Positions 15,698-34,352 of a stretch of DNA of 64,000 nt are shown here, in pieces; within the stretch, counting starts at the first letter, position 1; each line of letters opens with the position of its first letter. Where the stretch lies: IMG/VR virus record IMGVR_UViG_3300031994_000039, positions 32,001 through 96,000 of that record. The stretch is one strand, 5' to 3'. Position numbers and translations under genes: made by a program. This DNA comes from a virus (taxonomy: Duplodnaviria; Caudoviricetes). A model generated the notes under the pieces. That model made no database searches. It was not told the origin of the DNA and worked only from the letters and a program-made list of their open reading frames with translations.

Positions 15698-15768
15698 TAA
15701 GGTACTAGGGAGTTGCACCCTAATCTCTGCCTTCCAAGGGCAGGGCTTTACTATTAAGCTAGTACCTC
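15698..15768 (-). tRNA. tRNA-Pro(TGG)
   Basis: Acceptor GAGGTAC/GTACCTT, anticodon arm CTGCC-CTTGGAA-GGCAG, T arm TAGGG-TGCAACT-CCCTA. Confidence 0.85.
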
Positions 15769-15967
15769 ATATAAATATAAGGGAGTTAGATTTCTCCGAC
15801 TCCCTCAAGTATACATCCGAAAACGTATACCCCAATTACTAATCATTGCCTTCACACTAATAGCTAACAGAACTTCCCGCCATAGCTGGGCGGTTATGTG
15901 AAAAGCAAACTCCCGACTACTCAACCGGTATGTTCGTTGGGAGATTTAATTGAAGTTCTCTTTTACA

Positions 15968-16290
15968 CACGCATGTGGCTAATTTCAAACCGGTTATTAT
16001 CCGAAGATTTACCGGAGCAACTAAACCCCTCACGCCACCAGGCGGGCTGCTTAGAAACACGGCTCATTAAAGAGCTCTTCAGTATGTCCTGATTATTTGG
16101 TTGAGGGAAGTAGGTTTCTATTATAATCTCCGCAAGCCTACAAATCCGGGTCCGAAAATATCGCAAAACATTTCTGCTCCGCAACGCAAACGGCGATAAC
16201 CGTTTTCCAATAATGTTCCACCTTTAAGGCAGTGGGACACCTAAAAACTTGCCTCGGTCCGCAGTACATTTCTGTCTTATGCGTGGCAAG
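15968..16290 (-). ncRNA. Unidentified ~320-nt structured RNA in the tRNA cluster
   Basis: Nested long-range pairs CACGCAT/ATGCGTG, CGGTTAT/ATAACCG, CGGAGCA/TGCTCCG plus local hairpins; no credible ORF. Confidence 0.55.
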
Positions 16291-16294
16291 CAAG

Positions 16295-16376
16295 TGGGAG
16301 AAGATGGACTCGAACCATCGAAGGACATAGCCAGCGGATTTACAATCCGCCCTCATTGCCGCTAGAGAATTCTCCC
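16295..16376 (-). tRNA. tRNA-Tyr(GTA)
   Basis: GGGAGAA/TTCTCCC acceptor, GCGGA-TTGTAAA-TCCGC, long variable arm, TTCGAGT T loop. Confidence 0.9.
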
Positions 16377-16384
16377 GTATTATA

Positions 16385-16549
16385 TCAAGGCACATAATTG
16401 TACATTTCTTGACTTCCTAATTTACGATAATTATTATTCGTAAGTTCTTCTTTTGAATGTCTTACTCTGCGATTCCAAAGTTTCTTGTAGTGCTTCTTAG
16501 ATTCCTTGATACCATCTTTTAACCATCTGTCTTTCTTAGAACCTTTCAT
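16385..16549 (-). CDS. Small basic protein between tRNAs (54 aa)
   Basis: MKGSKKDRWLK...WNRRVRH; AAAGGG RBS. Confidence 0.55.
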   Translation of the reverse strand: MKGSKKDRWLKDGIKESKKHYKKLWNRRVRHSKEELTNNNYRKLGSQEMYNYVP

Positions 16550-16569
16550 ATTAAATACCCTTTCGTAGA

Positions 16570-16641
16570 TTGGAGCACCGGGATTTGAACCCGGGAATGA
16601 CGGAGTCAAAGTCCGTTGCCTTACCGCTTGGCTATGCCCCA
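16570..16641 (-). tRNA. tRNA-Gln(TTG)
   Basis: TGGGGCATAGCCAAGCGGTAAGGC..ACGGA-CTTTGAC-TCCGT..GGTTCAAATCC. Confidence 0.92.
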
Positions 16642-16742
16642 GGGCAGCTGCAGGAGTTGAACCCGCACCCTCGTCGATTACTTACTGACTGTTTTATCAT
16701 GAATTAACAGTCTGCTTTCACCAACGAGAACCGTTCACTGCC
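16642..16742 (-). ncRNA. tRNA-like RNA with an elongated arm replacing the anticodon arm
   Basis: Acceptor GGCAGT/GCTGCC, T arm GCGGG-TTCAACT-CCTGC, no D stem, 9-bp + 7-bp extended arm. Confidence 0.55.
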
Positions 16743-16880
16743 GTTTGTTCCAACTTTGTTTTCCGTGAGAAGACTTTTCATCCTCTCTTTGAACTCTACT
16801 AAATTAAGGATTTCCTTCCTGTCTGATTCATCAATCTTGCTAAGTCTTTCAGAATCAAAATACCCACCAGAAGTTTTCAT
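16704..16880 (-). CDS. Small protein (58 aa) overlapping the tRNA-like RNA
   Basis: GAGGTGA RBS, MKTSGGYFDSERL... Confidence 0.4.
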   Translation of the reverse strand: MKTSGGYFDSERLSKIDESDRKEILNLVEFKERMKSLLTENKVGTNGSERFSLVKADC

Positions 16881-16895
16881 AATATCACCTCGAAA

Positions 16896-16970
16896 GTACC
16901 TCTACCGGAATCGAACCGGCGCCTCTTTCCATTACTGGAAAGCGTGTTACCATTCTATCACTAAGCGGCA
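16896..16970 (-). tRNA. Atypical tRNA, identity undetermined (8-nt anticodon loop)
   Basis: Cloverleaf with GCCGG-TTCGATT-CCGGT T arm; anticodon arm CTTTC-CAGTAATG-GAAAG; one acceptor mismatch. Confidence 0.55.
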
Positions 16971-16976
16971 CAATAA

Positions 16977-17048
16977 CAAGAGCCCCAGGAATCGAACCCA
17001 GTCTATCTGTCTTGACAACAGATGTGCTATCCTTTACACTATGCTCTT
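16977..17048 (-). tRNA. Atypical tRNA (positional anticodon TCA with G33, or distorted Asp-GTC)
   Basis: AAGAGC/GCTCTT acceptor, GTGT/GCAC D stem, TCTGT-TGTCAAG-ACAGA, GGTTCGATTCC. Confidence 0.55.
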
Positions 17049-17230
17049 GAAGCATATACTATGTGTGGTCAACAACATGGTAGTGAAAACCCGGCATTAA
17101 AGGGGATGCCGGGGAAACTTTAAATGGAGGTTTGAAAGTATGCACAACACCGAAATTTAATATGCTTTTGAAAAGGAGAGTAACTTATGAATAAAAATAC
17201 CACCACACATAGCCTTATATTAGATAATGA

Positions 17231-17302
17231 TTGCGGGAGCCGGACTCGAACCGACGACTTCCAGAATATGGGTCTGGCGATCTACCTCTGCTCTATCCCG
17301 CC
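17231..17302 (-). tRNA. tRNA-Met/Ile2 (CAT)
   Basis: CCAGA-CCCATAT-TCTGG; G1:A72 mismatch; GGTTCGAGTCC. Confidence 0.8.
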
Positions 17303-19496: not shown

Positions 19497-19734
19497 TTTC
19501 CCATTGCTGCCGGATCATTTTCTTTCGCTTCGCTGTATCTCTTTCCATCTTTTCTCTCTGTTCTTTTCTGTTGTCAAGTATTACCCACACGCAAACAATT
19601 ACGAACATGGATATATAAATTGTTTTAAAAATAATAGAGCAAACTATATTTAAACTAGGTGTGGTTGCATCTGTTATCATAAACGCTGTTGATAAGATAA
19701 TTCCAAATATCCCAGAATAACCTTTCATTTTCAC
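19453..19734 (-). CDS. Two-TM membrane protein with basic tail
   Basis: Two hydrophobic segments followed by a K/R/E-rich tail. Confidence 0.6.
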   Translation of the reverse strand: MKMKGYSGIFGIILSTAFMITDATTPSLNIVCSIIFKTIYISMFVIVCVWVILDNRKEQREKMERDTAKRKKMIRQQWENDYAAFRKERNYHG

Positions 19735-20255
19735 ATTACCTCTTGTTTTGTTTTTACTTCATAATTTTTGCATTTTCTCTTTAACTTAAATGGTTCTTCA
19801 TCACGTCTAAGAACAAAGCGTCTGTCGCTAAATCGTTTTGCGCGTTCCTGCCCTTTAAGGAATATACACTCGTGATGCATACCAATCTCTGTCCTATCAG
19901 TCTTATAATATTTACAGGTGAGACATTTGTATTGCTTGCAGAGTTCCTTATATTCAGCGTCGCACTCATCTTTAAAGCTACGCTCTACCATTTCCTTAGT
20001 CCATTCCGGAAGTATAAGCCATCTCCAGACTGGTAAGCCGTTGTAGATATCCTGAGTAAACCGTTCATAAACATCCTCTTTCGTCAGACACTCAAAGTAG
20101 TCAGTCGCAAACCTAAATGATTCAAGATATGCCGAAATTTCCTCGTAGTTAATTTCATACTGACCGCCGATCTCTGTGTCTGCAAAAATCCTAAGGATAT
20201 CAACAATAGCAGAGCAAGCCATTGCCTGTTTTGGGTTCATCATATTCCTCCTCAA
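19731..20255 (-). CDS. Cys-containing hypothetical protein directly downstream of the RT
   Basis: CLTC...C...C motif; likely start at MMNP after GAGGAGG. Confidence 0.6.
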   Translation of the reverse strand: MRRNMMNPKQAMACSAIVDILRIFADTEIGGQYEINYEEISAYLESFRFATDYFECLTKEDVYERFTQDIYNGLPVWRWLILPEWTKEMVERSFKDECDAEYKELCKQYKCLTCKYYKTDRTEIGMHHECIFLKGQERAKRFSDRRFVLRRDEEPFKLKRKCKNYEVKTKQEVM

Positions 20256-20273
20256 GCCATGAATGGTATCACC

Positions 20274-21440
20274 TTATAAAGTTTTCAAGTCATTCTTAAT
20301 TGACTCAGCTATATTCAAGCCGACCTTCTGACTCATCTTGTCAACTATTTTCTGAATGGCTTCCTTTTCGACCATCGAGAAGTAATTACGATACCCTTCG
20401 AGCACTTGAATGTCATTCAACGACCAGTCCTTTCCGTTCTTTTTGTCCATGCCGTATGAATACAACATTGCGGTGAACTTTTTCTTGTTCTTATATCCGA
20501 CTGTAATCTGATTGTCCTTATTAAGCATTACGCCAAGATTCCAGTTTGAACCTGCAGAAGAACCATACCTTGTCTTCTTTCTATTAAGCTCGAACGGAGC
20601 TCCGAATTCCTGAAGAACCTTTACTATTTCGTCCTCAATCATCTTGTAACTGAAGTCTATCTTACATGATATGATGAAGTCATCCGCATATCTTGTATAC
20701 ACAAACTTCCTGTTATCATAATCCCTGAACATATTAAACAGCTTGTAGTCAATTGGGATCATCATGATGTTTGTTATTAGTGGGCTGATCGGAGTTCCTT
20801 GAGGAAGCCCGCCGTTTAAGAACGCAAGGCTGATTGCCTGCTCGAAATATTTCTTTCCTTCCGGAACCGCAAGAACTCTGGAAAACGGAAAAATCATACT
20901 GAACATCTTTGTCACGAATTCCGGAGTTGTGCTTCCAAAGAAGTTATGAAGGTCGAACTTTGCAAACCACTTACTTTCATTACCCTGATGTCTCTTTACT
21001 GCATCCAGTGTGCTTCTGCCTTTTATATATGCAAATGCTGATGTATGATACATCGCACCAAATCCATCCTCGAAGATGAACTTAAGTTCCCGAAGCGCCT
21101 CCATAAGTCTCGGCTTAGGTGCATCGATTCTACGAAGGCCGCCGGATCTCTTCGGAATGTGGAATGATCTATAAAGTTCCGCTCTATCCACTTCAAAGAG
21201 ATCCTTGTACTTCTCGTTAAAGCACCACAATTCATTAATGAGTGACTGAATATTCAAACTGCCGAATATCTTTTCAGCATTTCTGGATAAGTATGTTCGT
21301 GTGTTTGTATTCCTGCCGTCCTTGCGTGTATAGTTTTTATATCTTTCGTTCCATTCATTATCTGGTAACGAAAAGAAATCGTCCAGAGATAGCTGAACTG
21401 TTTTCTTATTAAGAACAACTACTACATACTCATTGTACAT
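20274..21440 (-). CDS. Retron-type reverse transcriptase (388 aa)
   Basis: IPKRSGGLRRIDAP, region-X-like SAFAY..GRS...DAVKRH, KFDLHNFFGS, GLPQGTPISP, YTRYADD, region-Y-like NLGV; start at ATG after AAAGGAGG. Confidence 0.9.
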   Translation of the reverse strand: MYNEYVVVVLNKKTVQLSLDDFFSLPDNEWNERYKNYTRKDGRNTNTRTYLSRNAEKIFGSLNIQSLINELWCFNEKYKDLFEVDRAELYRSFHIPKRSGGLRRIDAPKPRLMEALRELKFIFEDGFGAMYHTSAFAYIKGRSTLDAVKRHQGNESKWFAKFDLHNFFGSTTPEFVTKMFSMIFPFSRVLAVPEGKKYFEQAISLAFLNGGLPQGTPISPLITNIMMIPIDYKLFNMFRDYDNRKFVYTRYADDFIISCKIDFSYKMIEDEIVKVLQEFGAPFELNRKKTRYGSSAGSNWNLGVMLNKDNQITVGYKNKKKFTAMLYSYGMDKKNGKDWSLNDIQVLEGYRNYFSMVEKEAIQKIVDKMSQKVGLNIAESIKNDLKTL

Positions 21441-21459
21441 AGAGTTTCCTCCTTTCAAA

Positions 21460-21651
21460 TTAATTGTCAACCTCCACGACAATCTTATTATTGTCCAGAG
21501 AGAAGAAGACCACGGCGTGATCGAGGAAATCCTCAACCCGCTGTGGACTTTCGTTCTTTGTGCTTTCAATTATAACTTCCTGACTGCCTGCAGAAACCAG
21601 TGTGAAGTCTATGCTCAGTGCAGCCTTACTGTAAAAATCCCCAAATTTCAT
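21460..21651 (-). CDS. Small protein (63 aa) between DUF5688 and the RT
   Basis: AGAGGA RBS; fills the gap upstream of the RT. Confidence 0.6.
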   Translation of the reverse strand: MKFGDFYSKAALSIDFTLVSAGSQEVIIESTKNESPQRVEDFLDHAVVFFSLDNNKIVVEVDN

Positions 21652-21672
21652 TTTTCCTAGTCCTCTTTATTT

Positions 21673-22584
21673 TTAGCAATTAACCGTCGTAAATTCTTTC
21701 GTGTCTTTATTGAAGAAGAATATCTCTCCAGAAAGAGTATCCGCTGGTCCGAATATTCTATTTGTTTCCGTTACATTACGCTTAATGCTCGTCGGATCGA
21801 TGCTTCCAACCTTGTGAACCATAGCCTCGTGTATACTTGTGAACGCTACGTAGAAGCTATCGCCGTACATTTCTGCAAGCTTTTCCTTAACTCCCGGACA
21901 GAACATTGCGATCGCTCCGTTTGTTTTCCTGCTGGTTGTGACGAGCGTGACTCTGTTGTTACTAAGTCTTTCCTTGCTTTCGAGAACTTTCTTTCCGCTT
22001 CCGTCAGTTATGTTAAACATGTCTGTGTAGAACATTGGAACCTGATTCTTTACTGTGTTCTCCATTGCAGCCGCGAAGATATCCAAATCCTTCATACCTG
22101 TCTGCTTCTTATATCCTTCGACACATCTCATCGGAACCTTTATTGTGTTCAAGATTCCGTCGCAGTCACTCATAATAAGGTAAAGAACCAGCGCAATATC
22201 ACCCTTCTTGCAGTACATGCAAGGTTCTTTTGCATTCTTCTGGATAAATTCCGCACTATAATTCACAGGTCTGATGATTAATTCGTCCTTAATCTTAGTG
22301 TAGTCTTCTATTCTGTCGATCTTATTCATGAATCCACCAGCCCTTTTTCTGATGCTTGTCAAAGCCTCGCCAGTTGCCCTAAGGACAATGTCCCATCCTC
22401 TTTCGTTTACTGACTTCTGTGTATCTGCCAGTCTTACTGCCATTGATACCTCATCGCCGTTCAGTTTTATTCTTGCAACCTCTACATCATTTACACATTC
22501 AACGAGGAATTCCTCATTTGCCTGGATAAGATTGTATTCTTCCATTTTTTCTTTTAATACCTTTGCAAATTCTTTGTTAGTCAT
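21673..22584 (-). CDS. DUF5688-family protein
   Basis: LIIRPVNY...GDIALVLY...TNGAIAMF.P...FYVAFTSIHE...LSGEIFFF. Confidence 0.7.
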   Translation of the reverse strand: MTNKEFAKVLKEKMEEYNLIQANEEFLVECVNDVEVARIKLNGDEVSMAVRLADTQKSVNERGWDIVLRATGEALTSIRKRAGGFMNKIDRIEDYTKIKDELIIRPVNYSAEFIQKNAKEPCMYCKKGDIALVLYLIMSDCDGILNTIKVPMRCVEGYKKQTGMKDLDIFAAAMENTVKNQVPMFYTDMFNITDGSGKKVLESKERLSNNRVTLVTTSRKTNGAIAMFCPGVKEKLAEMYGDSFYVAFTSIHEAMVHKVGSIDPTSIKRNVTETNRIFGPADTLSGEIFFFNKDTKEFTTVNC

Positions 22585-22625
22585 AATCAAAACCTCCAAG
22601 TTTAATTATCTTACTACCATTGTTC

Positions 22626-22903
22626 GTGTAACCTGATTACCTTTCAGGATCTCAGGGCAGCGGGCGCTGGTGCCACCGGCGCGCGTCAAAGCGATCTTTT
22701 ATTTGTTCCTTTGCGGAACAAAAGAACGAAGGTCCACGTATTTGCGTGCTTCCTGAGATCTGTTTCTCTAATCAGGGCGGCTCCAGATCCGGAGATGGCG
22801 ACTTGAGTTGTCGCCTCTCCTCCTCCTTCGCCTTATCATGTCGAGCCTTTTAATTACATCAAAAGGTTATTTCATATTGGATATAAAATAATATGCGTTA
22901 CAC
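22626..22903 (-). ncRNA. Retron-like msr-msd ncRNA 1
   Basis: Terminal IR GTGTAAC/GTTACAC; G immediately 3' of the 5' repeat (22896); two short 5' hairpins; long 3' stem CCTGATTA..GATCTCAGG / CCTGAGATC..TAATCAGG. Confidence 0.75.
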
Positions 22904-22932
22904 ATTTTCATGTATTAATAAAAGATAGCGTG

Positions 22933-23017
22933 ATACATAAATTACATAAACAATACCGCCGCAAAAATCCCGCAAACCACGTAGCTATCAGGTTTGCGGG
23001 GGATAGTTTTTTCCAAC
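22933..23017 (-). promoter_or_regulatory. Promoter/operator-like element, homologous to 41509-41584
   Basis: GTTGGAAA-A-AACTA + IR enclosing TAGCTACGTGGTT + ATTTATGTAT. Confidence 0.55.
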
Positions 23018-23057
23018 TTTCTTGCGGAGTTATGTTTTATTACGTTTTGTCGCTCGC

Positions 23058-23720
23058 TTAAAAAGCGTCGATTTCAAAGCTCTTCAGATCAACTAAAACC
23101 ATCTTCTTAATTCCTTCGCCCTTTACGAAGTGTATGAAGTTGGTTACTGCGATTGACGATACCACTCTAACAACAGGGCACACGCCCAGTGTAATGCCGC
23201 AAGCTGATGTGGGAGTTTCTGCCTTCGCTTCTTCATGGCTGAACTGCATTGTAGCCAGAAGATTTTCCCTCATGCTTTTATCTGACCAGTCAGCAGCGTA
23301 ATGCTGTGCGTGCTCTAACAAAGTTCTTATGTCGAACACTGCTTTAACCATCGGATTAAGCATATGTTTTTCACAGATTTCTCTGCGGATCTCGATACTG
23401 TCTACGCAAAGGAAGACATATCCTGCAAGAGTTTCACCGTTCCAACCCTTCTTTGTTTTGATCTCGATGTCCGGATTGATGTTCTGGAGAATACCCTTGA
23501 GAGCTTCTGTCTTTTCCTTGCCGACATCTTCTTTCGTGAACATCTGGTTCACGATATTATGTTCCTCTACCTTATCAAAATCCCAGAGAACCATTGACTT
23601 TACGCCACAGCGGGCGAGGTTTTCTGCGATTGTTGAACCGACAGATCCACATCCGATGATGTGGATGTTGCCGTTTACATTGCTTGGGTTGAAGTATTCG
23701 AGTGATTTTGATAAATTCAT
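23058..23720 (-). CDS. ThiF/E1-like adenylyltransferase
   Basis: IIGCGSVGS, WDFDKVEEHNIVNQ, FLCVDS, SACG (candidate catalytic Cys); no CxxC zinc pairs. Confidence 0.9.
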   Translation of the reverse strand: MNLSKSLEYFNPSNVNGNIHIIGCGSVGSTIAENLARCGVKSMVLWDFDKVEEHNIVNQMFTKEDVGKEKTEALKGILQNINPDIEIKTKKGWNGETLAGYVFLCVDSIEIRREICEKHMLNPMVKAVFDIRTLLEHAQHYAADWSDKSMRENLLATMQFSHEEAKAETPTSACGITLGVCPVVRVVSSIAVTNFIHFVKGEGIKKMVLVDLKSFEIDAF

Positions 23721-23721
23721 A

Positions 23722-24333
23722 TTAACACGCCTCCACAAATAATTCTTCAAGGTTCACCTTTTCTTCTTCAGGTTCTTCTTTGATCTGGACTTCCGTTGTA
23801 CAGTACTCTTCAAATGCCTTCATGAGTTCTTCGGCAAATTCACTTTCCTGTTCTTCTGTAAGAGCTGGTGTCTCAGGTTCAGGTTCCTCTTCCGGAATCT
23901 CATAATTGTCAACAATTTCATGGATGATGTCCATTATATCTGTTGCTGCTTCCCCTTCTGCGGCAGGTTCTTCTTCCTCCTCAGGGTCATCCTCTTCTTC
24001 GGGTTCATCTTCCCATTCCTGGTTGTTGTCCATATATGATTTGAGATCGTCTTTATAATCATTGAACTGCCCGTCGTTGTCGTCTGTTCCTCTCCACGTT
24101 CCGTCGTAGTCGTCGTGTATATATCTGTCATACCTGTCACTTGGTATATCATCAACCAAGCTTCTTAAATCTGACAGAGAGTCGCAGTACTTTGCGTCAT
24201 CGAGAATTCTGCTTTCAAATTCGCCGTGCGTATATAAACCGCCTGTGAAAACATCATTAAAATAATCATAATCCCTTGCGCATTGTTCCAGTTCATCATA
24301 GGTGGTGATATCTTCAAACTCTGTTCGTGTCAT
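23722..24333 (-). CDS. Highly acidic protein in the Ubl operon
   Basis: D/E-rich throughout, with EEEDDPEEEEEP tracts. Confidence 0.7.
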   Translation of the reverse strand: MTRTEFEDITTYDELEQCARDYDYFNDVFTGGLYTHGEFESRILDDAKYCDSLSDLRSLVDDIPSDRYDRYIHDDYDGTWRGTDDNDGQFNDYKDDLKSYMDNNQEWEDEPEEEDDPEEEEEPAAEGEAATDIMDIIHEIVDNYEIPEEEPEPETPALTEEQESEFAEELMKAFEEYCTTEVQIKEEPEEEKVNLEELFVEAC

Positions 24334-24352
24334 ATTTCAGACCCTCCTTACC

Positions 24353-25162
24353 TTACCATCCGCAACCAAATCTTTCGCTCAGCCACGCTTCGTATTCCTC
24401 ATCTGTCATGCCAGCGTAGTAGTCACTATATTTTGATTTCTTACCGCCTTTGCCTTTGCCGATAGTCTTTGTGTCGGCTAAGGTACCCTTCAGATTGTAA
24501 ATCTGTGTACCTGTGTATCTTGGGAAGTATTCATCAACCACGAGTTCCTTCGCTTTTTCTGCGAACTCCAGGATTTCCTCTTCGACATCGACGAATACCG
24601 TAACATCATTGTCTTCATAGACTGTGTTACTCTGTTTATCGTAAATGTTTACGTATACGTCTCCTTTTTTATTTGTAACCAAGAAGATATAGAAGTCGTC
24701 GTCTCTGAGCTGATCAACGATTCCTCCGTAATAGGTTTCGTCTACGCTTGAAGGAGTTACGCCCATGTTTACATGGCTGTGCCCCTGCATTCTTAAGTTC
24801 TGAAAAACCTCGTCTGGCTGTTCGTAGAGCCACATCTGATACTTTTCCTGATCCGTAGTGACAGTTGAACCTGTTACCTTCTGCGGGTAAACTACTATGT
24901 CGTCGATGACATAATCGCCGTCCTTTACCTTTCTGGCGATGCCGTGCCATGCAACCTCTTTATCAAACTTATCAACCAGTGCTCTCATTTTCTTATCGGC
25001 AAGCTGACTGATTTCCAGTGAAGCTTTTTTGCCGGTATTCAGTGTGAGTTTCTTGCTGTAGTTGACTGTGTTATTCTTGAAGACTCCGGCTGCGAGAAAT
25101 TTTAAAAATTCCTCACGGATCTTTTCAATTTCTGTCTGATCTATATTAAATGCACGACTCAT
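24353..25162 (-). CDS. JAB/MPN+ metallopeptidase (deubiquitinase-like)
   Basis: EVAWHG...GHSHVNMGVTPSSVD = E...HxH-x7-S-x2-D. Confidence 0.9.
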   Translation of the reverse strand: MSRAFNIDQTEIEKIREEFLKFLAAGVFKNNTVNYSKKLTLNTGKKASLEISQLADKKMRALVDKFDKEVAWHGIARKVKDGDYVIDDIVVYPQKVTGSTVTTDQEKYQMWLYEQPDEVFQNLRMQGHSHVNMGVTPSSVDETYYGGIVDQLRDDDFYIFLVTNKKGDVYVNIYDKQSNTVYEDNDVTVFVDVEEEILEFAEKAKELVVDEYFPRYTGTQIYNLKGTLADTKTIGKGKGGKKSKYSDYYAGMTDEEYEAWLSERFGCGW

Positions 25163-25166
25163 ATGA

Positions 25167-26570
25167 TTAACCTTCCTTTCTAAGTTCCTCAAGAACTTCA
25201 TTGAGTGTGTAGCTGTTTCCGTTTAATTCAAAAGCTCTCTTGTTTGTTCTTGTTATGCGAGTTGTAAACTCTTCCATAACGGTGCTGTCTGCGAAGTTCA
25301 ATGAACGAACTGACATTCCGCAGAGACTGAGACACTGGATTGTATCGCCCGCCTTGAGCGCATCGACCATCATCATTTCATAGTCACCTAAACAGTGGTA
25401 ACGGTCGATATGTGTATTCGGGAAGTAATCCTGAACTTCTGGAATGTAGCTTGCGTCTGCTATTCCAGTCACTCTGAACTCGCTTATCTTTATTCTGTAA
25501 GCTGCAACACTCTTGAGCTTCACACTATGTTCTACGAAGATCGCATTGAAGAGTTTTTCTGTGTCCTCTCTGCTGATGTTTGAATAATCGTAAATAATAC
25601 TATCGTAATTATCTACAAATTCCTCAGCTGTATCCGAATCAAATACATCAAGATATCCAGTAGCAAAAAACTCGATTGAGTCGCCGCTGCATGAATTGAA
25701 TACGAGATTTTTATTTGCCTTGAAGAAGTCGAGAATTTCGTTACTTTCATTCTTCACAACATTTCTTAATCCATCAATAATGATGTTCTTATCTCTTATC
25801 TTTATGAGCAGATTCGAAATTTCCTCACGCTTCATAGCTATCGTCTGTTCCAGTGATGAGATTTCGTTCTTGTGATATTCTAACTTATTCTTTGCAAAGC
25901 GAGTCTCAATTCCTGAAAGTGCTGCTTCCATTTTCCTTTCCCGGATGCCCTTGATAGCTGCGATGTTTGCGATTGCCTTTAAGAAAGGTTCTACGTTAGT
26001 CTTGCTGAGAGTTTCAAGGAACTCTGTTTCCTCTTTGGTGATAGGCTTTTCCTTGAAGAACCACGGCAGATATACCGGAGTTCCCATTAATACATAACGT
26101 TCTGTTTCAAGAGACATATTTTCTATCGGCTTATAGATTACGATTGTCCGCTTGCCGCATGTGAAACATGTTACCTCAGTTCTGCTAAAGAACTTTCTAA
26201 CCTTCGCAGTTTCAACCCATTCCGGGCTCTTTTCCTTAACTCCCTCGCTGAGTTCGTCAAACCACTTTGTATCCGATCTCTTTACAGATATCAGCCATAA
26301 ATCCTCATCACACTTTTCTGTGTCGAATGTGAGTAATCTGTTGTGTAATTCATCGTATGATGAATCATACATGCCAGCGTTTCTGGTTATTTCGTTATAC
26401 CTGATTTTGAATGGCGCGTCGTCTTCGACCCTGTCGATTAATAACGCTCTTACAACCATATTGAATACTACGTCTGTACTATAATTCCATTCGATCTTAT
26501 AGATCTTCTTATCATCTTCGTCTTCGTTGTAACTGAAGGCAGTTGATGCTGGGATTCTTCCGTTGAACAT
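25167..26570 (-). CDS. Coiled-coil + prokaryotic E2-like conjugating enzyme
   Basis: Central coiled coil; C-terminal PNTHIDRYHCLG resembles the E2 HPH/HPN...CLG active site; context with E1, JAB and Ubl. Confidence 0.65.
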   Translation of the reverse strand: MFNGRIPASTAFSYNEDEDDKKIYKIEWNYSTDVVFNMVVRALLIDRVEDDAPFKIRYNEITRNAGMYDSSYDELHNRLLTFDTEKCDEDLWLISVKRSDTKWFDELSEGVKEKSPEWVETAKVRKFFSRTEVTCFTCGKRTIVIYKPIENMSLETERYVLMGTPVYLPWFFKEKPITKEETEFLETLSKTNVEPFLKAIANIAAIKGIRERKMEAALSGIETRFAKNKLEYHKNEISSLEQTIAMKREEISNLLIKIRDKNIIIDGLRNVVKNESNEILDFFKANKNLVFNSCSGDSIEFFATGYLDVFDSDTAEEFVDNYDSIIYDYSNISREDTEKLFNAIFVEHSVKLKSVAAYRIKISEFRVTGIADASYIPEVQDYFPNTHIDRYHCLGDYEMMMVDALKAGDTIQCLSLCGMSVRSLNFADSTVMEEFTTRITRTNKRAFELNGNSYTLNEVLEELRKEG

Positions 26571-26630
26571 TTAAAAATTCCTCCTTAGAAAGATTGGCGG
26601 GGTGTTGTGTTCCCCGCCTTTTGGTTTTGG

Positions 26631-26943
26631 TTTGTGTAACCTAATTAGAAGTTGATCCTGATGAAGGATGAGTTCTGGGCTACTCAACCAGGTGAACTTC
26701 TATTACGATGACCTTTTTCCTGATCTGCGGGCTGCGCAATCTTGGGGCTTCCTGAACATATTTCTGCTTGGATGTTGATTGAGCTTTTAATTTTTTTTTT
26801 TAGTATGTTTTAATCAGATAAAACAGTACCCAGCTCGTGTCCAGATACCTCCTTCCGGCGGAGGTGCCTCCTTTCCCTTAACAATGCGATCCATTCACTG
26901 ACAGTAAATGGTTGTTTTAAAAAAACAAAATGCGTTACACAAA
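26631..26943 (-). ncRNA. Retron-like msr-msd ncRNA 2
   Basis: 10-bp terminal IR TTTGTGTAAC/GTTACACAAA, G at 26933; 5' ~90 nt and 3' TAATTAGGTTACAC are homologous to ncRNA 1. Confidence 0.75.
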
Positions 26944-26972
26944 AATCAAATACTAGTTTTATTCAGCAGAAA

Positions 26973-27200
26973 TTAAGCGTTGTCTGCTTTAACCACCTGT
27001 AAGAGGTAGCATTTATCAGTAACGCCGTAGTCTGCAAAGGTCTTATTGAAATCCGCACTGCCTACGACGCTGCCGTTGAGTGTGATTCCGCCTGCGGCAA
27101 CATTGAGATTTGCCTGTTCTGCGGCTTCGAGAATTGTAGTGCTTGGGTCAAGAACTAATTCTGTTTTATTGAGTGATGTTCCGCTTATTACCTTAATCAT
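26973..27200 (-). CDS. Ubiquitin-like (beta-grasp) protein, copy 1 (75 aa, ends KADNA)
   Basis: Size, TT(I/L)xE...LNG...KTF.DYGV pattern; AAGGAGG RBS; context. Confidence 0.75.
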   Translation of the reverse strand: MIKVISGTSLNKTELVLDPSTTILEAAEQANLNVAAGGITLNGSVVGSADFNKTFADYGVTDKCYLLQVVKADNA

Positions 27201-27284
27201 GGTTAAATTCCTCCTTAATTTACAGGGGCGAGGCAAATGCCCAGCCCCGACTTACCTGTTATTTATGAATTGTGAAGAATGTTA

Positions 27285-27665
27285 TCACATAATTGTGATG
27301 CTATCCATTGCTGTGCTGAGTGCGTTCTTGGCAGCTTCGATCTTTTCCGGAGCAGTTGCCTCGAATGCGTTCATTTTAGCAAGAGCCTTGCCATACTTTT
27401 CAGCAATGAACCCCTTGATCTTATCCGGTTCAAGATCGCCGACAGAAACTGAAGTGCTTGCGTAGCCGCTTGCATCAGTCTTATCGAAGGTGATTCCGTA
27501 TGTTCCGATTGAGCCTGTGGTTCCTGTTGCAACCTTAAAATCAATTTCCTTTTCCTCGTTCTTAACGACGAGTGCTTCAGGTGTTACTGTTGCAAGTGTT
27601 TCGAGATCTGCTGTGAGAATTGTGCTTGTGAAAACTGCGATGCCTGAGATTACTGTTACCTTCAT
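27285..27665 (-). CDS. 126-aa protein, paralog A in the Ubl operon
   Basis: Same length and clearly similar to 27751-28131. Confidence 0.8.
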   Translation of the reverse strand: MKVTVISGIAVFTSTILTADLETLATVTPEALVVKNEEKEIDFKVATGTTGSIGTYGITFDKTDASGYASTSVSVGDLEPDKIKGFIAEKYGKALAKMNAFEATAPEKIEAAKNALSTAMDSITIM

Positions 27666-27750
27666 TTAGATTTCCTCCTTAAAATTACAGGGGCGAGATT
27701 AAGAAACCCCGCCCCACTTACGTGAATGAATGTTTGTTTCCGCTGAGCGA

Positions 27751-28131
27751 TTACATAATTGTGATGTTGTTCATTGCTGTTTCAAGAGCTGACTTAGCAA
27801 GTGCGATACGCTCTGGTGCAACCTCTTCAAAAGAGTTCATCTTTGCGATTGCCTTGCCATATTTAGTGGCAATGAATTCCTTCACCTTGTCTGCCGGAAT
27901 GTTACCGATTTCAACAGATGTTGAAGCGAAGCCGCTTGCGTCTGTCTTGTCGAAGGTGATTCCGTAGGTACCAACTGAGCCCTTTGAGCCTGTGTCAACC
28001 ACAAACTCAATTTCTTTTTCTTCGTTCTTGGCGATGAGCACTTCCGGAGTTACCTTCTTGAGTGTTTCCAGATCAGACATGAGAACTGCACTTGTGAAAA
28101 CCGCGATTCCGCTGATTACAGTAATTTTCAT
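27751..28131 (-). CDS. 126-aa protein, paralog B in the Ubl operon
   Basis: MKITVISGIAVFTS...GTYGITFDKTDASG shared with paralog A. Confidence 0.8.
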   Translation of the reverse strand: MKITVISGIAVFTSAVLMSDLETLKKVTPEVLIAKNEEKEIEFVVDTGSKGSVGTYGITFDKTDASGFASTSVEIGNIPADKVKEFIATKYGKAIAKMNSFEEVAPERIALAKSALETAMNNITIM

Positions 28132-28294
28132 TTTAAATTCCTCCTAGAATTTTCTTACTTGTGTTTTGAGAGATGTGAAATTGTGTGTCTATTATGTTAA
28201 ACTCCTAAACGGTTGGGTTGAATTCCGCAAGCCCGAAATTGGGGGCGATAACCGTTCCGCTTAGGAGGTAACATCAGATTGTTTTTCCAGTAGC

Positions 28295-28522
28295 TTAAGC
28301 GTTGTCTGCCTTAACTACCTGGAGTAAGTAACATTTATCTGTTACTCCGTAGTCGTTGAAAGTCTTGTTGAAATCCCCACCGGAAACCATTGAGCCGTTG
28401 AGTGTGATTCCGCCCGCAGGAACGTTGAGTCCTGCCTGCTCTGCAGCTTCCATGAGTGTTGTTGATGGGTCGATAACGAGTTCTGTCTTGTTGAGTGATG
28501 TTCCTGAGATTACCTTGATCAT
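28295..28522 (-). CDS. Ubiquitin-like protein, copy 2 (75 aa, ends KADNA)
   Basis: 65/75 residues identical to copy 1. Confidence 0.75.
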   Translation of the reverse strand: MIKVISGTSLNKTELVIDPSTTLMEAAEQAGLNVPAGGITLNGSMVSGGDFNKTFNDYGVTDKCYLLQVVKADNA

Positions 28523-28592
28523 TTGAAATTCCTCCTAAGTTTTTCGTTTAAATTCTTACTAATTCTTACTGGAACTTTTAATTCCTTACTTA

Positions 28593-28621
28593 ACTATATC
28601 ACAGCGTTGTCTGTTTGTCAA
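28593..28621 (-). promoter_or_regulatory. Sigma-A promoter of the Ubl operon
   Basis: TTGACA-17 bp-TATAGT with extended TG. Confidence 0.75.
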
Positions 28622-28783
28622 GTATATTTTTAAAAGCTCTTTTCTTACCCTGACCAAAATCCGTCCTTTCTTGTTTATGGTTTGTTACTTTCCTACAGTG
28701 GTTCATTGGTTGGTTATCCACTCACGCCGCGTGGAGGCTGAACCTTGTGAGCTGTAGCTCCTACGAGAGGAGCAAGTATCAAA

Positions 28784-28864
28784 TTAAATTCCGAGCCCTG
28801 CGATGAGGACAGCAATTGCCGTTCCCCACATGAGCAAGCTATAGCAGCTTTTAGAATTCCTCAT
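28784..28864 (-). CDS. 26-aa hydrophobic peptide
   Basis: MRNSKSCYSLLMWGTAIAVLIAGLGI after AAGGTGGTGA RBS. Confidence 0.45.
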   Translation of the reverse strand: MRNSKSCYSLLMWGTAIAVLIAGLGI

Positions 28865-28883
28865 GTGATTATCACCACCTTTC

Positions 28884-29267
28884 TTATACGCTTCCTATTT
28901 TCAGAGTATCGTAAGCCTCGAACTTCTTGAAGAGCTGCTTGTAGTATGCCCTTACATCGTTGAGTTTTCTTACGAATACCGTCTTCTCGTAGATAGTTTT
29001 CCAGCCGTACTTAGTCTTTAATGCCGGATTGTTTTTCTCGTATCCCTCCTTAACTGTGACGAACCTTCTGTTTAATTCCCTGTACCTTCTGATTGAGAAA
29101 TCCTCGGTTCCTGTATAGTGGATTTTCCCTTCATCATCAAGATCCATGTATTCTATTTCATACATAGCAACCTTGTTTCCTTTTATGTCTGCGTCTTTGC
29201 TTACCCAGCCGATTCCCTCGACGTATTTGTTTACGATTCCCGTGTATACTCTATGAAGTTCATACAT
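28884..29267 (-). CDS. Hypothetical early protein
   Basis: MYELHR start after GAGGTG. Confidence 0.6.
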   Translation of the reverse strand: MYELHRVYTGIVNKYVEGIGWVSKDADIKGNKVAMYEIEYMDLDDEGKIHYTGTEDFSIRRYRELNRRFVTVKEGYEKNNPALKTKYGWKTIYEKTVFVRKLNDVRAYYKQLFKKFEAYDTLKIGSV

Positions 29268-29338
29268 GATTAAACACCTCTCAGACCTTCTGTAATGCCC
29301 CACAAGGGCGTTGCTGATTTTAATTGACAACTTTACCC

Positions 29339-29587
29339 CTACCAGTTGAGGAGTGCCTTCTTGGCTTCCCTAGAAAGTTCCTGAGGGTTTATTCCCAGTG
29401 CATTGAGGAGGCTTCTGATTCCGTCCTCATATCCATACTGGTACTCGCAGTTCCTGCGGTATTCCTCGAAGTCTGTGTTTGCGAGTTCCGTGTCCTTAGG
29501 GTAAACCCTTTTCACAGATTCCCAGTTTGTTTTCATTACAGTCAGAACTGGATTTGTTAAGATTCCCATGTGTTTATTTCCTCCCAT
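29339..29587 (-). CDS. Hypothetical early protein
   Basis: ORF track; likely start MGIL after GGAGG. Confidence 0.6.
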   Translation of the reverse strand: MGGNKHMGILTNPVLTVMKTNWESVKRVYPKDTELANTDFEEYRRNCEYQYGYEDGIRSLLNALGINPQELSREAKKALLNW

Positions 29588-32195: not shown

Positions 32196-32665
32196 GATAA
32201 ATTACCTCCTGTGTAAATTGACTGTGGTTTATGTGCTGCCCTTTACAGCACTAAACCCCGTGGCAGTGTCGCAACTGCCTGTGTGCAAGCACACAATCCG
32301 CTTTTAGGAAACGGGGTAATATGTAAAGCCCTGTACACGCTTATGTAAGGGCTGAATTTACATTTATCCGCGGGTTTATCTCATGGGTCAAAGCCATGTA
32401 TCAGAGAACCCGAAACTGTATCCATGCAAACGGGCAAGCCTCCATTTGCACGTTTCACCCATTTTCACCTACTGGGCAACCGTCGGCAACCGTCATTTAT
32501 TCACTCTATCGGGCTTGAGCGCCTGCTACACCGTCAATTTTCCATCAAGTAAAAACCGTCCAATTTGTTCGATTCTCGTAGAGAAGCTCAAGAGCACACC
32601 GTAGGTGTTCAAACTCGTTGGCTTATAGATTTTTGCTATTTGGAAAAAATCCATAGTAGCAAGGG

Positions 32666-32846
32666 GTCAACGCAAGGGGGGTGCAAGCCCCCCGACCGTC
32701 AACGCAAGGGGGGTGCAAGCCCCCCGACCGTCAACGCAAGGGGGGTGCAAGCCCCCCGACCGTCAACGCAAGGGGGGTGCAAGCCCCCCGACCGTCAACG
32801 CAAGGGGGGTGCAAGCCCCCCGACCGTCAACGCAAGGGGGGTGCAA
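32666..32846. repeat. Perfect 32-bp tandem repeat, about 5.7 copies
   Basis: Unit GTCAACGCAAGGGGGGTGCAAGCCCCCCGACC at 32666, 32698, 32730, 32762, 32794 and partial at 32826. Confidence 0.95.
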
Positions 32847-32930
32847 AAGTCCAAAGCAAACAAAAAAAAGTCCCTCAGACAACGTATTTACGTCATTTGA
32901 GGGACTTGCTAAGGGGATTAGAGTGTTATA

Positions 32931-34262
32931 TTATCTGATAACAATTGCGCCTTTATGACTATTTGCAAACATCCACGTAGCATATGAAATATTTTCCAGT
33001 TTGCCGTAGTGCTCGAAAATAGGCGGGTTTAAATAGTCTGTTGACTTGTGAAGATTGACTTTGTATTCATTAGCTACTATGCTAATATCAGCACCTGTAA
33101 ACTCTGCGTCACTCTGTGGGTCAACGTGTATCGGAATGTTACTCATTTCTGACAGCTTGTTTGCAGTTTCAGTATCGTATGAACCGCGTGAAATAGGGCT
33201 TGAATCCTTTTCGTTCCAGGAATTGGCAAGTATCTCGTGGGCACTTGCATTGTTAAAGTCAAGTACATTTTTCAGTGATTCAATGCTTAAAGCCTTATTA
33301 CGGATACGCTTTAAAGCACTTTTTACAGTTTCTTGACTCATTTTTAAACTTTTAGCAATGACTTTGTATCCGGCAAACGGCATTTTAAGTCTAAATGCGA
33401 GCACTTTTGTTTCTGATTCCGACAGCTTAAGGTCGGCTGTCGATACTCTGAGTCTGTTTTCGTCCTCTAACGTATCAATATTATACACGAGTCGCTGATA
33501 GATTTTAGTGCCTTCTGTCGCATTATCTAACTCAATATAGCTGTAGCGCCCGTCGTAAGACTTGAAGCTGTCGTAAGAAGCGATGTTCTGTCTGATTTTG
33601 TGGAATATTTCACGAAGAACAGACGTCTCAACTTCACGATATGTTGCAACAGTGTCTAGTGTGTCAGATATTACGACCTGTTTTGTTGGTTTATTTACCA
33701 TGATTTTACGGGTTAACCAATATCTATGACAAATATTCGGAGTTTTGAGCAGTTCAAACTGGAATTTATTCTCAGTTTTCATAGCGCTCCAAAGTTCAAT
33801 AAATGCCGTGTTTACGTGATCTGAAGCGCTTCCACTCCATGGATTTTTGATACAGTCATAATACATTTCACGTACCTTTTCGTTGTCCGGTGTTACGTCA
33901 AGCATGCGTCTAAGTACACAGAGTACCATAGCAGGACTTAAAGCTCTAAAAGTCGACTCACACGGATTCTTTTCAGCGTCACTTACAAGGTCGGAAAATA
34001 CGTGTTTTTCAGCACTTTCAGCCTTCCATGATTCAATGATTATCATGAAATTTTTCCATGATTCAGTTGACAGAATGTCTACCGGAACGTCAAAATGTTT
34101 ATCGTCTTTCCAGTTGATGTTTAAAGGCTTGAAAGTCACGTTTTCACGGGCTTTTAAAGCGTTTTTACGGTTCAGCATTTCTTGACGTTCTGTGAATGTC
34201 ATGCCGGAAAATGTGTTGTTTGCGTCGTTTGTGGTTGCGGTTGTGTTTGCGTACTTTTTCAT
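32931..34262 (-). CDS. Putative early regulator with sigma-region-4/LuxR-like HTH
   Basis: LSESETKVLAFRL...GYKVIAKSLKMSQETVKSALKRIRNK; AGGAGG RBS; consensus promoter upstream. Confidence 0.65.
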   Translation of the reverse strand: MKKYANTTATTNDANNTFSGMTFTERQEMLNRKNALKARENVTFKPLNINWKDDKHFDVPVDILSTESWKNFMIIIESWKAESAEKHVFSDLVSDAEKNPCESTFRALSPAMVLCVLRRMLDVTPDNEKVREMYYDCIKNPWSGSASDHVNTAFIELWSAMKTENKFQFELLKTPNICHRYWLTRKIMVNKPTKQVVISDTLDTVATYREVETSVLREIFHKIRQNIASYDSFKSYDGRYSYIELDNATEGTKIYQRLVYNIDTLEDENRLRVSTADLKLSESETKVLAFRLKMPFAGYKVIAKSLKMSQETVKSALKRIRNKALSIESLKNVLDFNNASAHEILANSWNEKDSSPISRGSYDTETANKLSEMSNIPIHVDPQSDAEFTGADISIVANEYKVNLHKSTDYLNPPIFEHYGKLENISYATWMFANSHKGAIVIR

Positions 34263-34352
34263 AAAAATCATCCTCCTAAGATGTTGTGTCACTTTTTGTG
34301 ACAAGGTTTAAAAGTTTATGATATAGAGAAAATTTCTTTTCTCTATGGTTTT

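Follow-up and report, generated by a model that had tools for sequence, protein, structure and literature searches.

A predicted ubiquitin-like conjugation operon of gut phages, conserved beside a retron-type reverse transcriptase

The operon and its proteins

A minus-strand operon in the genome of an uncultured gut phage encodes two ubiquitin-like proteins (Ubl1 and Ubl2), two copies of a partner protein termed X, an E2-like protein (E2L), a JAB/JAMM metalloprotease and a minimal E1, and is the subject of this report. It lies in a window of 64,000 nucleotides (nt), the whole stretch of DNA that was analysed, which corresponds to bases 32001-96000 of the 112,506-base IMG/VR virus record IMGVR_UViG_3300031994_000039. 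The record, ~112 kb long and rated 95% complete, can be taken as viral on these grounds and because the window encodes a portal protein (PHROG 1.5e-103) and a tape-measure-like protein. The operon is contained in a leftward arm (window 1-34,300) that is on the minus strand.

In the order of transcription the genes are those for Ubl1 (28295-28522, 75 residues), X1 (27751-28131, 126 residues), its paralogue X2 (27285-27665, 126 residues, 71% identical to X1) and Ubl2 (26973-27200, 75 residues, 87% identical to Ubl1), followed after a gap of ~400 nt by those for the E2-like protein (25167-26570, 467 residues), the JAB protein (24353-25162, 269 residues), an acidic protein (23722-24333, 203 residues), and the E1 (23058-23720, 220 residues). 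An original prediction, made from the sequence alone, had placed a complete phage-encoded Ubl conjugation operon here; all eight of its open reading frames (ORFs) were found on the minus strand, and the motifs that it quoted are all present, namely KADNA at the end of both Ubls, FPNTHIDRYHCLG in the E2-like protein, HSH-x7-S-x2-D in the JAB protein and TSACG in the E1, which also carries GCGSVGS. Alignment with relatives moves the likely starts of the JAB protein to the ATG at 25162 (ORF as called 24353-25201) and of the E1 to the ATG at 23720 (ORF as called 23058-23750), and with these revised starts the gaps from the E2-like gene through the E1 gene are just 1-4 nt. The acidic protein, for which Pfam, NCBIfam, PHROGs and PADLOC gave no match, has homologues in only a few related loci, and in several relatives the JAB gene abuts the E1 gene; it is a variable insert outside the conserved core.

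The Ubl1 ATG is preceded by an AGGAGG ribosome-binding site and, at 28593-28621 on the minus strand, by a sigma-70-type promoter-like site (TTGACA-17-TATAGT with an extended -10 TG), which matches at 11 of 12 positions and is the best such site in 10 kb (19500-29500). A sigma-A promoter with early expression had been proposed here; the elements are as described, and the site is a putative promoter by consensus match only, which says nothing on timing. Between Ubl1 and Ubl2 synonymous divergence (dS) is ~1.0, with a nonsynonymous-to-synonymous ratio (dN/dS) of 0.16, and between X1 and X2 the values are ~1.6 and 0.14, so that both duplicates are old and maintained by purifying selection. A GC-rich hairpin of 11 pairs, flagged as terminator-like, lies between X1 and X2 (27690-27715, minus strand); it may be an attenuator that splits Ubl1-X1 from the remaining operon.

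The exact Ubl1 protein is present in the ESM Atlas with a model (predicted local distance difference test, pLDDT, 0.77). Structural neighbours of this model include ThiS/MoaD (template modelling score 0.69 over 72 residues) and ubiquitin, Rad60-SLD and DDI1-UBL (0.62-0.70), and the named ones are beta-grasp proteins without exception; the closest Atlas clusters are large groups of viral proteins, one of them with 952 members. A beta-grasp fold, on which the original prediction had depended for the 75-residue protein, is thus supported by the neighbours of a predicted model. No match to Ubl was obtained in Pfam, NCBIfam, PHROGs or PADLOC, and a PDB profile search returned matches at chance level only.

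Homologues of X adjoin Ubl in all relatives. The family is ~130 residues long, with conserved G48, G57 and K39 and a C-terminal I-T-V-x, and it had no match in Pfam, NCBIfam, PHROGs, PADLOC, a PDB profile search (chance level only) or the ESM Atlas (no model and no feature match). A relationship between X and Ubl was considered and rejected, hhalign giving a probability of 0.1 and the common 'MK.TVISG' start being superficial. In the window Ubl and X are separate genes, and the pairs occur in either order, as Ubl1-X1 and as X2-Ubl2. At another locus (L002) two genes each encode Ubl joined directly to X, and a profile search limited to longer proteins recovered at least 204 longer Ubl relatives, most of the 120 listed being ~205 residues long. 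Among the 204, fusions of Ubl to X with KADNA|A at the join number at least 119: at the junction of these 119, K is present in 119, A in 112, D in 119, N in 118 and A in 119, the following A in 114, and the sequence past KADNA is that of standalone X minus its Met. Given such fusions in at least 119 protein clusters, Ubl is usually made as a precursor with X. X, left unexplained in the original prediction, proves to be an obligate partner of Ubl that is usually fused to it, and could be a target, an adaptor or cargo.

Together with the fusion, the end of Ubl is the comparative result that tells most. Sixteen Ubls with 27-47% identity to Ubl1 keep V-V-K-A-D-N-A. Standalone Ubls end in NA or in NA followed by A, R, AA, GQ or AI; in one subclade the end is KADGG with C, CC or IH after it, and further variants have KADGA or KADSA plus two residues. 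From the KADGG, KADGA and KADSA variants it appears that the last two conserved positions correspond to the Gly-Gly of classical Ubls and that the residues beyond them vary, which is the pattern expected if JAB trims to Ala or Gly. The K-A-D-N-A C-terminus is accordingly read, from its conservation, as the predicted site of processing and activation. Both Ubls of this window and all 119 fusions have Ala as the conserved terminal residue, and Gly is confined to the small subclade. Conjugation had been proposed to use the C-terminal Ala or, after trimming by JAB, the Asn before it. The Ala end is upheld by the KADGG variants with their C, CC or IH, by the variable tails after NA and by the NA|A junctions; the Asn end is not, a C-terminal Asn after trimming being unlikely since Asn can be replaced by Gly or Ser and the last small residue cannot.

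The E2-like protein comprises an N-terminal alpha/beta domain, a long helix (residues 221-273) and a C-terminal domain (residues 274-467, coordinates 25167-25751). Its closest relatives are 95%, 69% and 60% identical, and 18 homologues of near-equal length have in common M1-F2, the central helix and the block PNTHIDRY.C.G.Y. An AlphaFold 2 (AF2) model of the full-length protein (pLDDT 84) shows these three parts; Foldseek found no E2 with it, and a wide search with VIA-align was swamped by the helix at 220-276. A resemblance of the N-terminal domain to MoaB/MogA, seen in a second look with VIA, was set aside because the matches were weak (Z at most 5.1), and was taken as generic alpha/beta resemblance. 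Since the searches with the whole model were uninformative, the C-terminal domain was refolded alone. With 18 alignment rows its 194 residues gave a pLDDT of 94.7 and a predicted template modelling score of 0.89, and its elements run helix, two strands, helical insert, two strands, P-N-T-H loop, short helix, Cys and three helices, which we take to be the order of the UBC fold. When this model was compared with 48,161 representative chains by VIA-align, ~40 of the 50 listed matches were of UBC/RWD type. At the top were RWD domains of the SEA complex (Z 7.6), Knl1 (6.3) and Ltn1 (6.1); BilB (8tyz_C), the E2 of a bacterial E1-E2-Ubl complex, scored Z 5.8, with a root-mean-square deviation of 3.3 over 87 residues, and there followed FANCL (5.1), RNF25 (5.0), GCN2 (4.9), Ubc12 (4.5), Ubc9 (4.4), Cap2 (3.8) and about a dozen other E2s near Z 4. 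In a second look at the 717 best chains of Foldseek only RWD domains exceeded Z 4, everything else reaching at most 2.7. All Z values being below 8, each single match is weak, and what counts is how uniform the list is and how far behind it unrelated folds fall.

The motif N-x-H-x5-C-x-G adds a second line of evidence. Among 150 representatives that are mutually at most 50% identical, PN.H-x5-C.G is intact in 143; in the other seven only the Pro or, once, the Asn is changed, and the His, Cys and Gly never vary. In this window it reads PNTH-x5-C393, with the Cys codon at 25392-25394 on the minus strand, and Asn385 stands eight residues before Cys393. This is the spacing of UbcH5, in which Asn77 of the HPN motif precedes Cys85. 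It was concluded that the C-terminal domain has a predicted UBC/RWD fold and an E2-type active-site signature, from which catalysis is inferred. The UBC fold that had been proposed for 25167-26570 was thus recovered by structure prediction for the C-terminal domain, with BilB among its matches.

In the JAB protein E69, H128-S-H130, S138 and D141 are invariant among 15 aligned homologues. PADLOC matched it to its JAB model of the cyclic oligonucleotide-based anti-phage signalling system (CBASS) at 7.2e-5, and no Pfam model was significant. Three RPN11 entries headed the PDB profile search, with HSH...S..D aligned to the RPN11 site; as E was just 0.58, this match supports the assignment only alongside the motif. 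Taken together, the invariant JAMM residues, the PADLOC match and RPN11 as top profile match agree with the JAB assignment of the original prediction. The C-terminal tail of the protein (24353-24700), like that of all homologues, is a long low-complexity region, Gly/Tyr-rich, then Lys-rich, then acidic, whose character is conserved and whose sequence is not.

The E1 was likewise correctly recognized in the original prediction, matching Pfam ThiF (PF00899) over residues 28-217 at 2.4e-25 (89.5 bits, cut-off 28.1) and the PADLOC E1-E2 model (Cap2) over its nucleotide-binding half at 7e-20. Among curated families it comes closest to ThiF/MoeB and to the E1 portion of CBASS-like Cap2 proteins. It thus belongs to the ThiF/E1 superfamily, whose Rossmann-type adenylation domain is marked by GxGxxG and by conserved Asp, Arg and Lys. 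Invariant across 22 homologues are the GCGSVG(S/A) loop, DFD.VE.HN..NQ, the metal-site Asp and ETP.SAC, whose Cys occupies what we take to be the position of the conserved Cys of MoeB and ThiF.

The conserved block, the reverse transcriptase and the ncRNA cassettes

Downstream of the E1 gene, at 20274-21443 on the minus strand, lies a gene for a reverse transcriptase (RT) of 389 residues. It matches Pfam RVT_1 (1.3e-17), the PADLOC retron models RT_II-A (1.6e-46) and RT_I-A (3.8e-41) and the NCBIfam retron St85 RT (1.9e-50; 171.8 bits, below the cut-off of 235), and is by these matches assigned to the retron type; the original prediction had not counted it as part of the unit. A DUF5688 gene (21673-22599), with a homologue in just one of the related loci compared, stands between E1 and the RT.

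The linkage of these genes was followed from three anchors. All 23 loci found with an E2-like profile have the order X-Ubl-E2L-JAB-(variable)-E1-RT, and so has the most distant relative, an unannotated human faecal phage at 24% identity. The E1 anchor yielded 237 viral contigs that carry E1, of which the best 80 loci were compared: all six genes are present in 73, and in five of the remaining seven the contig stops no more than 3.7 kb upstream of E1. The RT is found in 79 of these 80, and the one apparent loss is due to an insert that places the RT beyond the flank (the same contig as RT-anchored locus L174). The RT anchor yielded 512 relatives, and in the best 79 new loci all six genes are present in 68, with eight of the other eleven cut by contig ends; L174 has the long insert, L161 has a truncated E2-like gene and is without X or Ubl, and L201 has a deletion described below. 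Seven genes that flank the block in this window (of 201, 148, 95 and 82 residues upstream and 174, 159 and 150 residues downstream) had no homologue in the compared E1- and RT-anchored loci. As the block is kept while its neighbours vary, the six genes travel as a unit, and the same gene order in 23, 80 and 79 related viral loci argues against a chance arrangement.

The kit is essentially phage-borne, as had been proposed: against the 237 viral contigs stand four matching contigs among 185,579 prokaryote species represented by one genome each. All four are from metagenome-assembled genomes (MAGs), assigned to Eubacteriales, Clostridiaceae and Ca. Limimonas, with a 1.9-kb contig binned as Prevotella; the three that are long enough to judge have the order X-Ubl-E2L-JAB-E1, and two of them also have the RT. 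The phage hosts are probably gut Clostridia. A profile of the E2-like domain retrieved 2,226 clusters at 50% identity among 1.84 billion representatives, 738 of them below 1e-30, and the architecture is uniform, ~480-500 residues, in the listed top 150. A tblastn search with the E2-like protein gave one match, in an unannotated faecal phage; a megablast search with the operon against 50,697 phage records gave no match, a single-protein locus search found nothing, and a portal-anchored search for related phages without the block returned short fragments only.

One of the MAG contigs (L026, JAUNSG010000001.1, Eubacteriales) is 359 kb long and has the complete block 16-33 kb from one end; this could be a prophage, or else phage and host DNA that were joined into one contig. 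A gene in the structural arm of the present window (41836-42870) encodes a tyrosine-recombinase/integrase-like protein (phrog_1, 8e-40), which bears on whether the phage is temperate. The match in the 359-kb contig and the integrase-like gene together leave a temperate lifestyle open.

Two paralogous, retron-like non-coding RNA (ncRNA) cassettes, both on the minus strand, are interleaved with the genes. Cassette 1 (22622-22904) lies between E1 and DUF5688, and cassette 2 (26630-26941) between Ubl2 and the E2-like gene, in the gap at 26571-26972 where a second ncRNA had been suspected in the original prediction. This gap has no ORF of at least 40 codons of its own; a TTG extension in the Ubl2 frame (26973-27236) and a plus-strand ORF (27046-27465) barely reach it and are almost wholly outside. 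Both cassettes begin at the 5' end with TGTGTAACGCAT and end at the 3' end with AGGTTACAC(G/A)AAC, cassette 2 being bounded by TGTGTAACGCAT and AGGTTACACAAAC, and each motif occurs only there on this strand. The ends hold an inverted repeat, GTGTAAC/GTTACAC, that resembles the a1/a2 repeat of retrons. Folding z-scores are -6.19 for the region of cassette 1 (22600-23057) and only -1.76 for the gap around cassette 2. The cassettes had no match in Rfam, and blastn found no similarity of the intergenic or ncRNA regions to those of relatives. By their terminal motifs and repeats the cassettes are retron-like and are candidate ncRNAs of the msr-msd type.

A proposed pathway and its relation to known systems

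These observations point, with moderate confidence, to a working phage-encoded pathway of Ubl maturation, activation and conjugation. The analysis establishes a fold or motif for each of the four enzymes and carriers and the conservation of both the processing site and the gene block; every chemical step, the target and the role in what follows are inferred. Ubl would be made alone or, in most relatives, as a Ubl-X precursor. JAB would cut after K-A-D-N-A, freeing an X that starts with Ala and exposing the terminal Ala of Ubl (Gly in a few lineages). The minimal ThiF-type E1 would then adenylate the exposed carboxylate, and may also hold Ubl on its invariant Cys (ETP-x-S-A-C), from which Ubl would pass to Cys393 in the UBC/RWD-like domain of the E2-like protein. 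The N-terminal domain and long helix of the latter could supply oligomerization and target choice, replacing an E3. Ubl would finally be joined to a target lysine, a step that JAB could reverse; candidate targets are X, a complex of the RT with its multicopy single-stranded DNA (RT-msDNA), and proteins of the host or of phages. Most probably the pathway would serve in conflict between phage and host or between phages, acting with the neighbouring retron-type RT and the two ncRNAs.

Several points weigh against this pathway. Z scores below 8 are in the range in which a match may mean just a common arrangement, and the best structural matches of the E2-like domain are to non-catalytic RWD domains. 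Foldseek returned nothing significant with the model of the C-terminal domain, no E2-family profile in Pfam, NCBIfam, PADLOC or PHROGs matched the protein, and the residue-level equivalence of Cys393 to an E2 catalytic Cys is putative. The E1 is a single ThiF domain of 220 residues, with no CYS, UFD or second (inactive) adenylation domain. A terminal Ala is an unusual E1 substrate, and the CBASS preprint (10.1101/2022.03.31.486616) was checked for a precedent of an Ala-terminated E1 substrate and none was found. In one relative (L010, 7074-7295) Ubl ends two residues early, KAD being followed by TGA. In another (L201, 6782-9876) a deletion has removed the JAB and E1 genes and most of the E2-like gene and has left X, Ubl, the RT and an E2-like remnant of 81 residues. 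Neither an E3 nor a target was identified.

One alternative is an E2-free pathway, in which the 467-residue protein would be a non-catalytic RWD/UEV-like scaffold or adaptor and the E1, being of MoeB/ThiF size, would transfer Ubl directly, as archaeal UbaA does with SAMPs. The top structural matches (non-catalytic RWD, Z 5-7.6) and the lack of an E2 sequence family match speak for it; BilB and many true E2s are nevertheless in the match list, and a Cys with Asn eight residues upstream, His and Gly, kept in 150 of 150 divergent members apart from the single Asn change, is what one expects of an active site rather than of a scaffold, which makes this route distinctly unlikely. The likeness of the E1 to ThiF/MoeB, with ThiS/MoaD as best named structural neighbour of Ubl, would also fit a sulfur carrier that is converted to a thiocarboxylate by the E1 and trimmed by JAB in the manner of Mec+/CysO or QbsD/QbsE, for thio-modification of a phage nucleic acid or cofactor, and the phage has tRNA genes and enzymes for tRNA repair. 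The end here is Asn-Ala, however, whereas that of sulfur carriers is Gly-Gly; the block has no rhodanese, cysteine desulfurase, sulfur acceptor, ThiG or MoaE-like gene, and neither a UBC-like Cys protein nor a Ubl-X fusion would have a role in such a scheme. We regard it as very improbable. Even less credence is given to chemistry like that of MccB, a member of the ThiF family that modifies an Asn at the C-terminus. JAB would here remove the last Ala, and the E1 would turn the exposed Asn into a peptidyl-nucleotide, as MccB does with MccA. Asn does precede the last residue in most members, but several lineages have Gly or Ser in its place and still keep the small residue at the end, the conserved stretch includes the Ala and goes no further, and the E1 (220 residues) has no N-terminal peptide-clamp domain.

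The remaining alternative concerns the purpose of the machinery and not its chemistry. The Ubl genes could serve as the effector or regulatory arm of a new type of retron, with no general tagging: Ubl would be attached to one partner (X, the RT or RT-msDNA) and removed by JAB, making a sensor switch by analogy with the control of a CD-NTase by Cap2/Cap3 in CBASS. The RT is retron-type, it is present in 79 of the 80 E1-anchored loci, the six genes are complete in 68 of the 79 loci anchored on the RT, two retron-like cassettes lie inside the Ubl operon, the six-gene block is conserved and its flanks are not, and X is in one piece with Ubl in most relatives. On the other side, all loci are from one group of related phages of ~100-130 kb, so that the linkage may partly reflect shared ancestry; the msDNA, the physical link and the conjugation site are hypothetical; and the ncRNA regions are without blastn similarity to relatives. 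This alternative seems to us rather unlikely as stated, and, being compatible with the conjugation pathway, it would narrow that pathway rather than replace it. A more inclusive version is put forward tentatively, as possible though less likely than not: X, Ubl, E2L, JAB, E1, the RT and the interleaved cassettes might form one machine, a new class of retron with a complete Ubl-conjugation pathway as its accessory arm, carried by lytic or temperate gut phages rather than bacteria, with an Ala-terminated Ubl co-translated with X, in which attachment of Ubl to X, the RT or RT-msDNA would be the switch.

Among described systems the bacterial BilABCD operons are the closest in chemistry (PMC10557695, 10.1101/2023.09.04.556158). 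In these, separate genes encode four components, namely a beta-grasp Ubl, a UBC-like E2 that carries a Cys, a JAB by which the C-terminus of the Ubl is processed beforehand, and an E1. The phage operon shares the beta-grasp Ubl, by its predicted model, and the JAMM protease, and its pathway most probably works as theirs does. The differences are that the phage owns the genes here, whereas bacteria own them there; that BilD is an E1 of ~500 residues with IAD, AAD and CYS domains and a zinc site, in contrast to a single adenylation domain of 220 residues; that the E2-like protein is 467 residues long with an extra N-terminal domain and long helix; and that Ubl has in X an obligate partner, as a rule fused to it, and the block is linked to a retron-type RT. 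The Ubl of Bil has a universally conserved C-terminal Gly that is exposed by its deubiquitinase (PMC10557695), and here the residue is Ala. No similarity of Ubl or the E2-like protein to Bil models was detected at the sequence level. Because its E1 is minimal and its Ubl ends in Ala, the phage operon is not a member of Bil.

Type II CBASS, with Cap2 and Cap3 (PMC10097602; 10.1101/2022.03.31.486616), supplies the best defence-library matches of the E1 (Cap2, 7e-20) and of JAB (7.2e-5), and has in common with the phage block a minimal MoeB-like E1 and the attachment of an E1/E2/JAB set to a nucleotide-polymerizing enzyme. That enzyme is a CD-NTase, in place of which a retron-type RT is found here; Pfam, NCBIfam and PADLOC scans found no CD-NTase in the block. 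In addition, E1 and E2 are fused as Cap2 in CBASS and separate in the phage, and the CD-NTase's own C-terminus is conjugated there, whereas the phage has a dedicated beta-grasp Ubl. Bub systems (PMC11601596) resemble it in having a Ubl in a fusion precursor cleaved by a pathway peptidase (BubAB, cut by BubCD) and a diverged E1 and E2. They use Ser oxyesters, are without a catalytic Cys and have Ser-His peptidases, unlike the phage operon with its invariant Cys in both E1 and E2L and its JAMM peptidase, and the partner fused to Ubl is the E2 there and X here.

Eukaryotic ubiquitin precursors offer a further parallel, in that a modifier in frame with an unrelated protein is released at the modifier's last residue. 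Ubiquitin is fused to ribosomal proteins or to itself, which yields equal amounts of both products. In the phage the predicted site is NA|A and not GG|X, and the protease is of the JAMM family and encoded in the same operon. ThiS-ThiF and MoaD-MoeB, the closest relatives of E1 in sequence and, among named proteins, of the Ubl fold, differ in that here there is no Gly-Gly end and no sulfur-transfer partner, and a UBC-like Cys protein and JAB are present. With retrons the block has in common a retron-type RT, ncRNA cassettes with terminal inverted repeats and accessory proteins in one unit; two dispersed cassettes and carriage by a phage set it apart. In 2020 Mestre et al. reportedly recognized 13 types of retron, and to our knowledge no described type has Ubl, E1, E2 or JAB accessory genes. 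The block is thus a phage-borne variant of prokaryotic Ubl conjugation that falls outside Bil, CBASS, Bub and the sulfur carriers.

In the literature searched, prokaryotic Ubl conjugation appears only as bacterial anti-phage defence (Bil, type II CBASS and probably Bub), whereas here the phage side owns the full set. Phages enter a 2006 survey of prokaryotic E1/E2/JAB operons only through the Ubl domains of lambda-type tail assembly. No description of an E1-E2-JAB-Ubl set in a phage, of a Ubl ending in Ala or of a retron with genes of this kind was met in full-text searches, an absence that is not proof. The kit is common, with 237 viral E1 contigs, and its E2-like family is without a Pfam, PHROG or NCBIfam model. 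If the proposed pathway is correct, a natural Ubl that ends in Ala would provide a test of how strictly Gly-Gly is demanded by E1, E2 and JAMM enzymes, the Ubl-X proteins would be a viral analogue of ubiquitin-fusion precursors, and a minimal E1 would be paired with a large non-canonical E2. The constant linkage to a retron-type RT and the interleaved ncRNAs would further suggest an unexplored coupling of reverse transcription with protein tagging, and the tie to the RT is the most promising lead. As the parts are small, soluble-looking and expressible in E. coli, each step can be tested directly.

Other features of the phage genome

The rightward structural arm contains three group I introns (39514-39849, 45245-45502 and 53551-53875), all above the Rfam gathering score, two of which share a stretch of 73 nt at 75% identity. 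In the leftward arm a Pnkp-like kinase/phosphatase fused to a T4 Rnl1-type RNA ligase (755 residues) adjoins five tRNA genes (12975-15242 and 15698-17302), and the fusion and the tRNA genes look like a tRNA repair set. A minus-strand ORF of 457 codons (32931-34304) has a weak match to sigma-70 region 4 (E 0.006, below the Pfam cut-off). The gap directly downstream of it is occupied by a unit of 32 nt (GTCAACGCAAGGGGGGTGCAAGCCCCCCGACC) that is repeated six times in tandem (32634-32878), with a G6/C6 hairpin in every copy.

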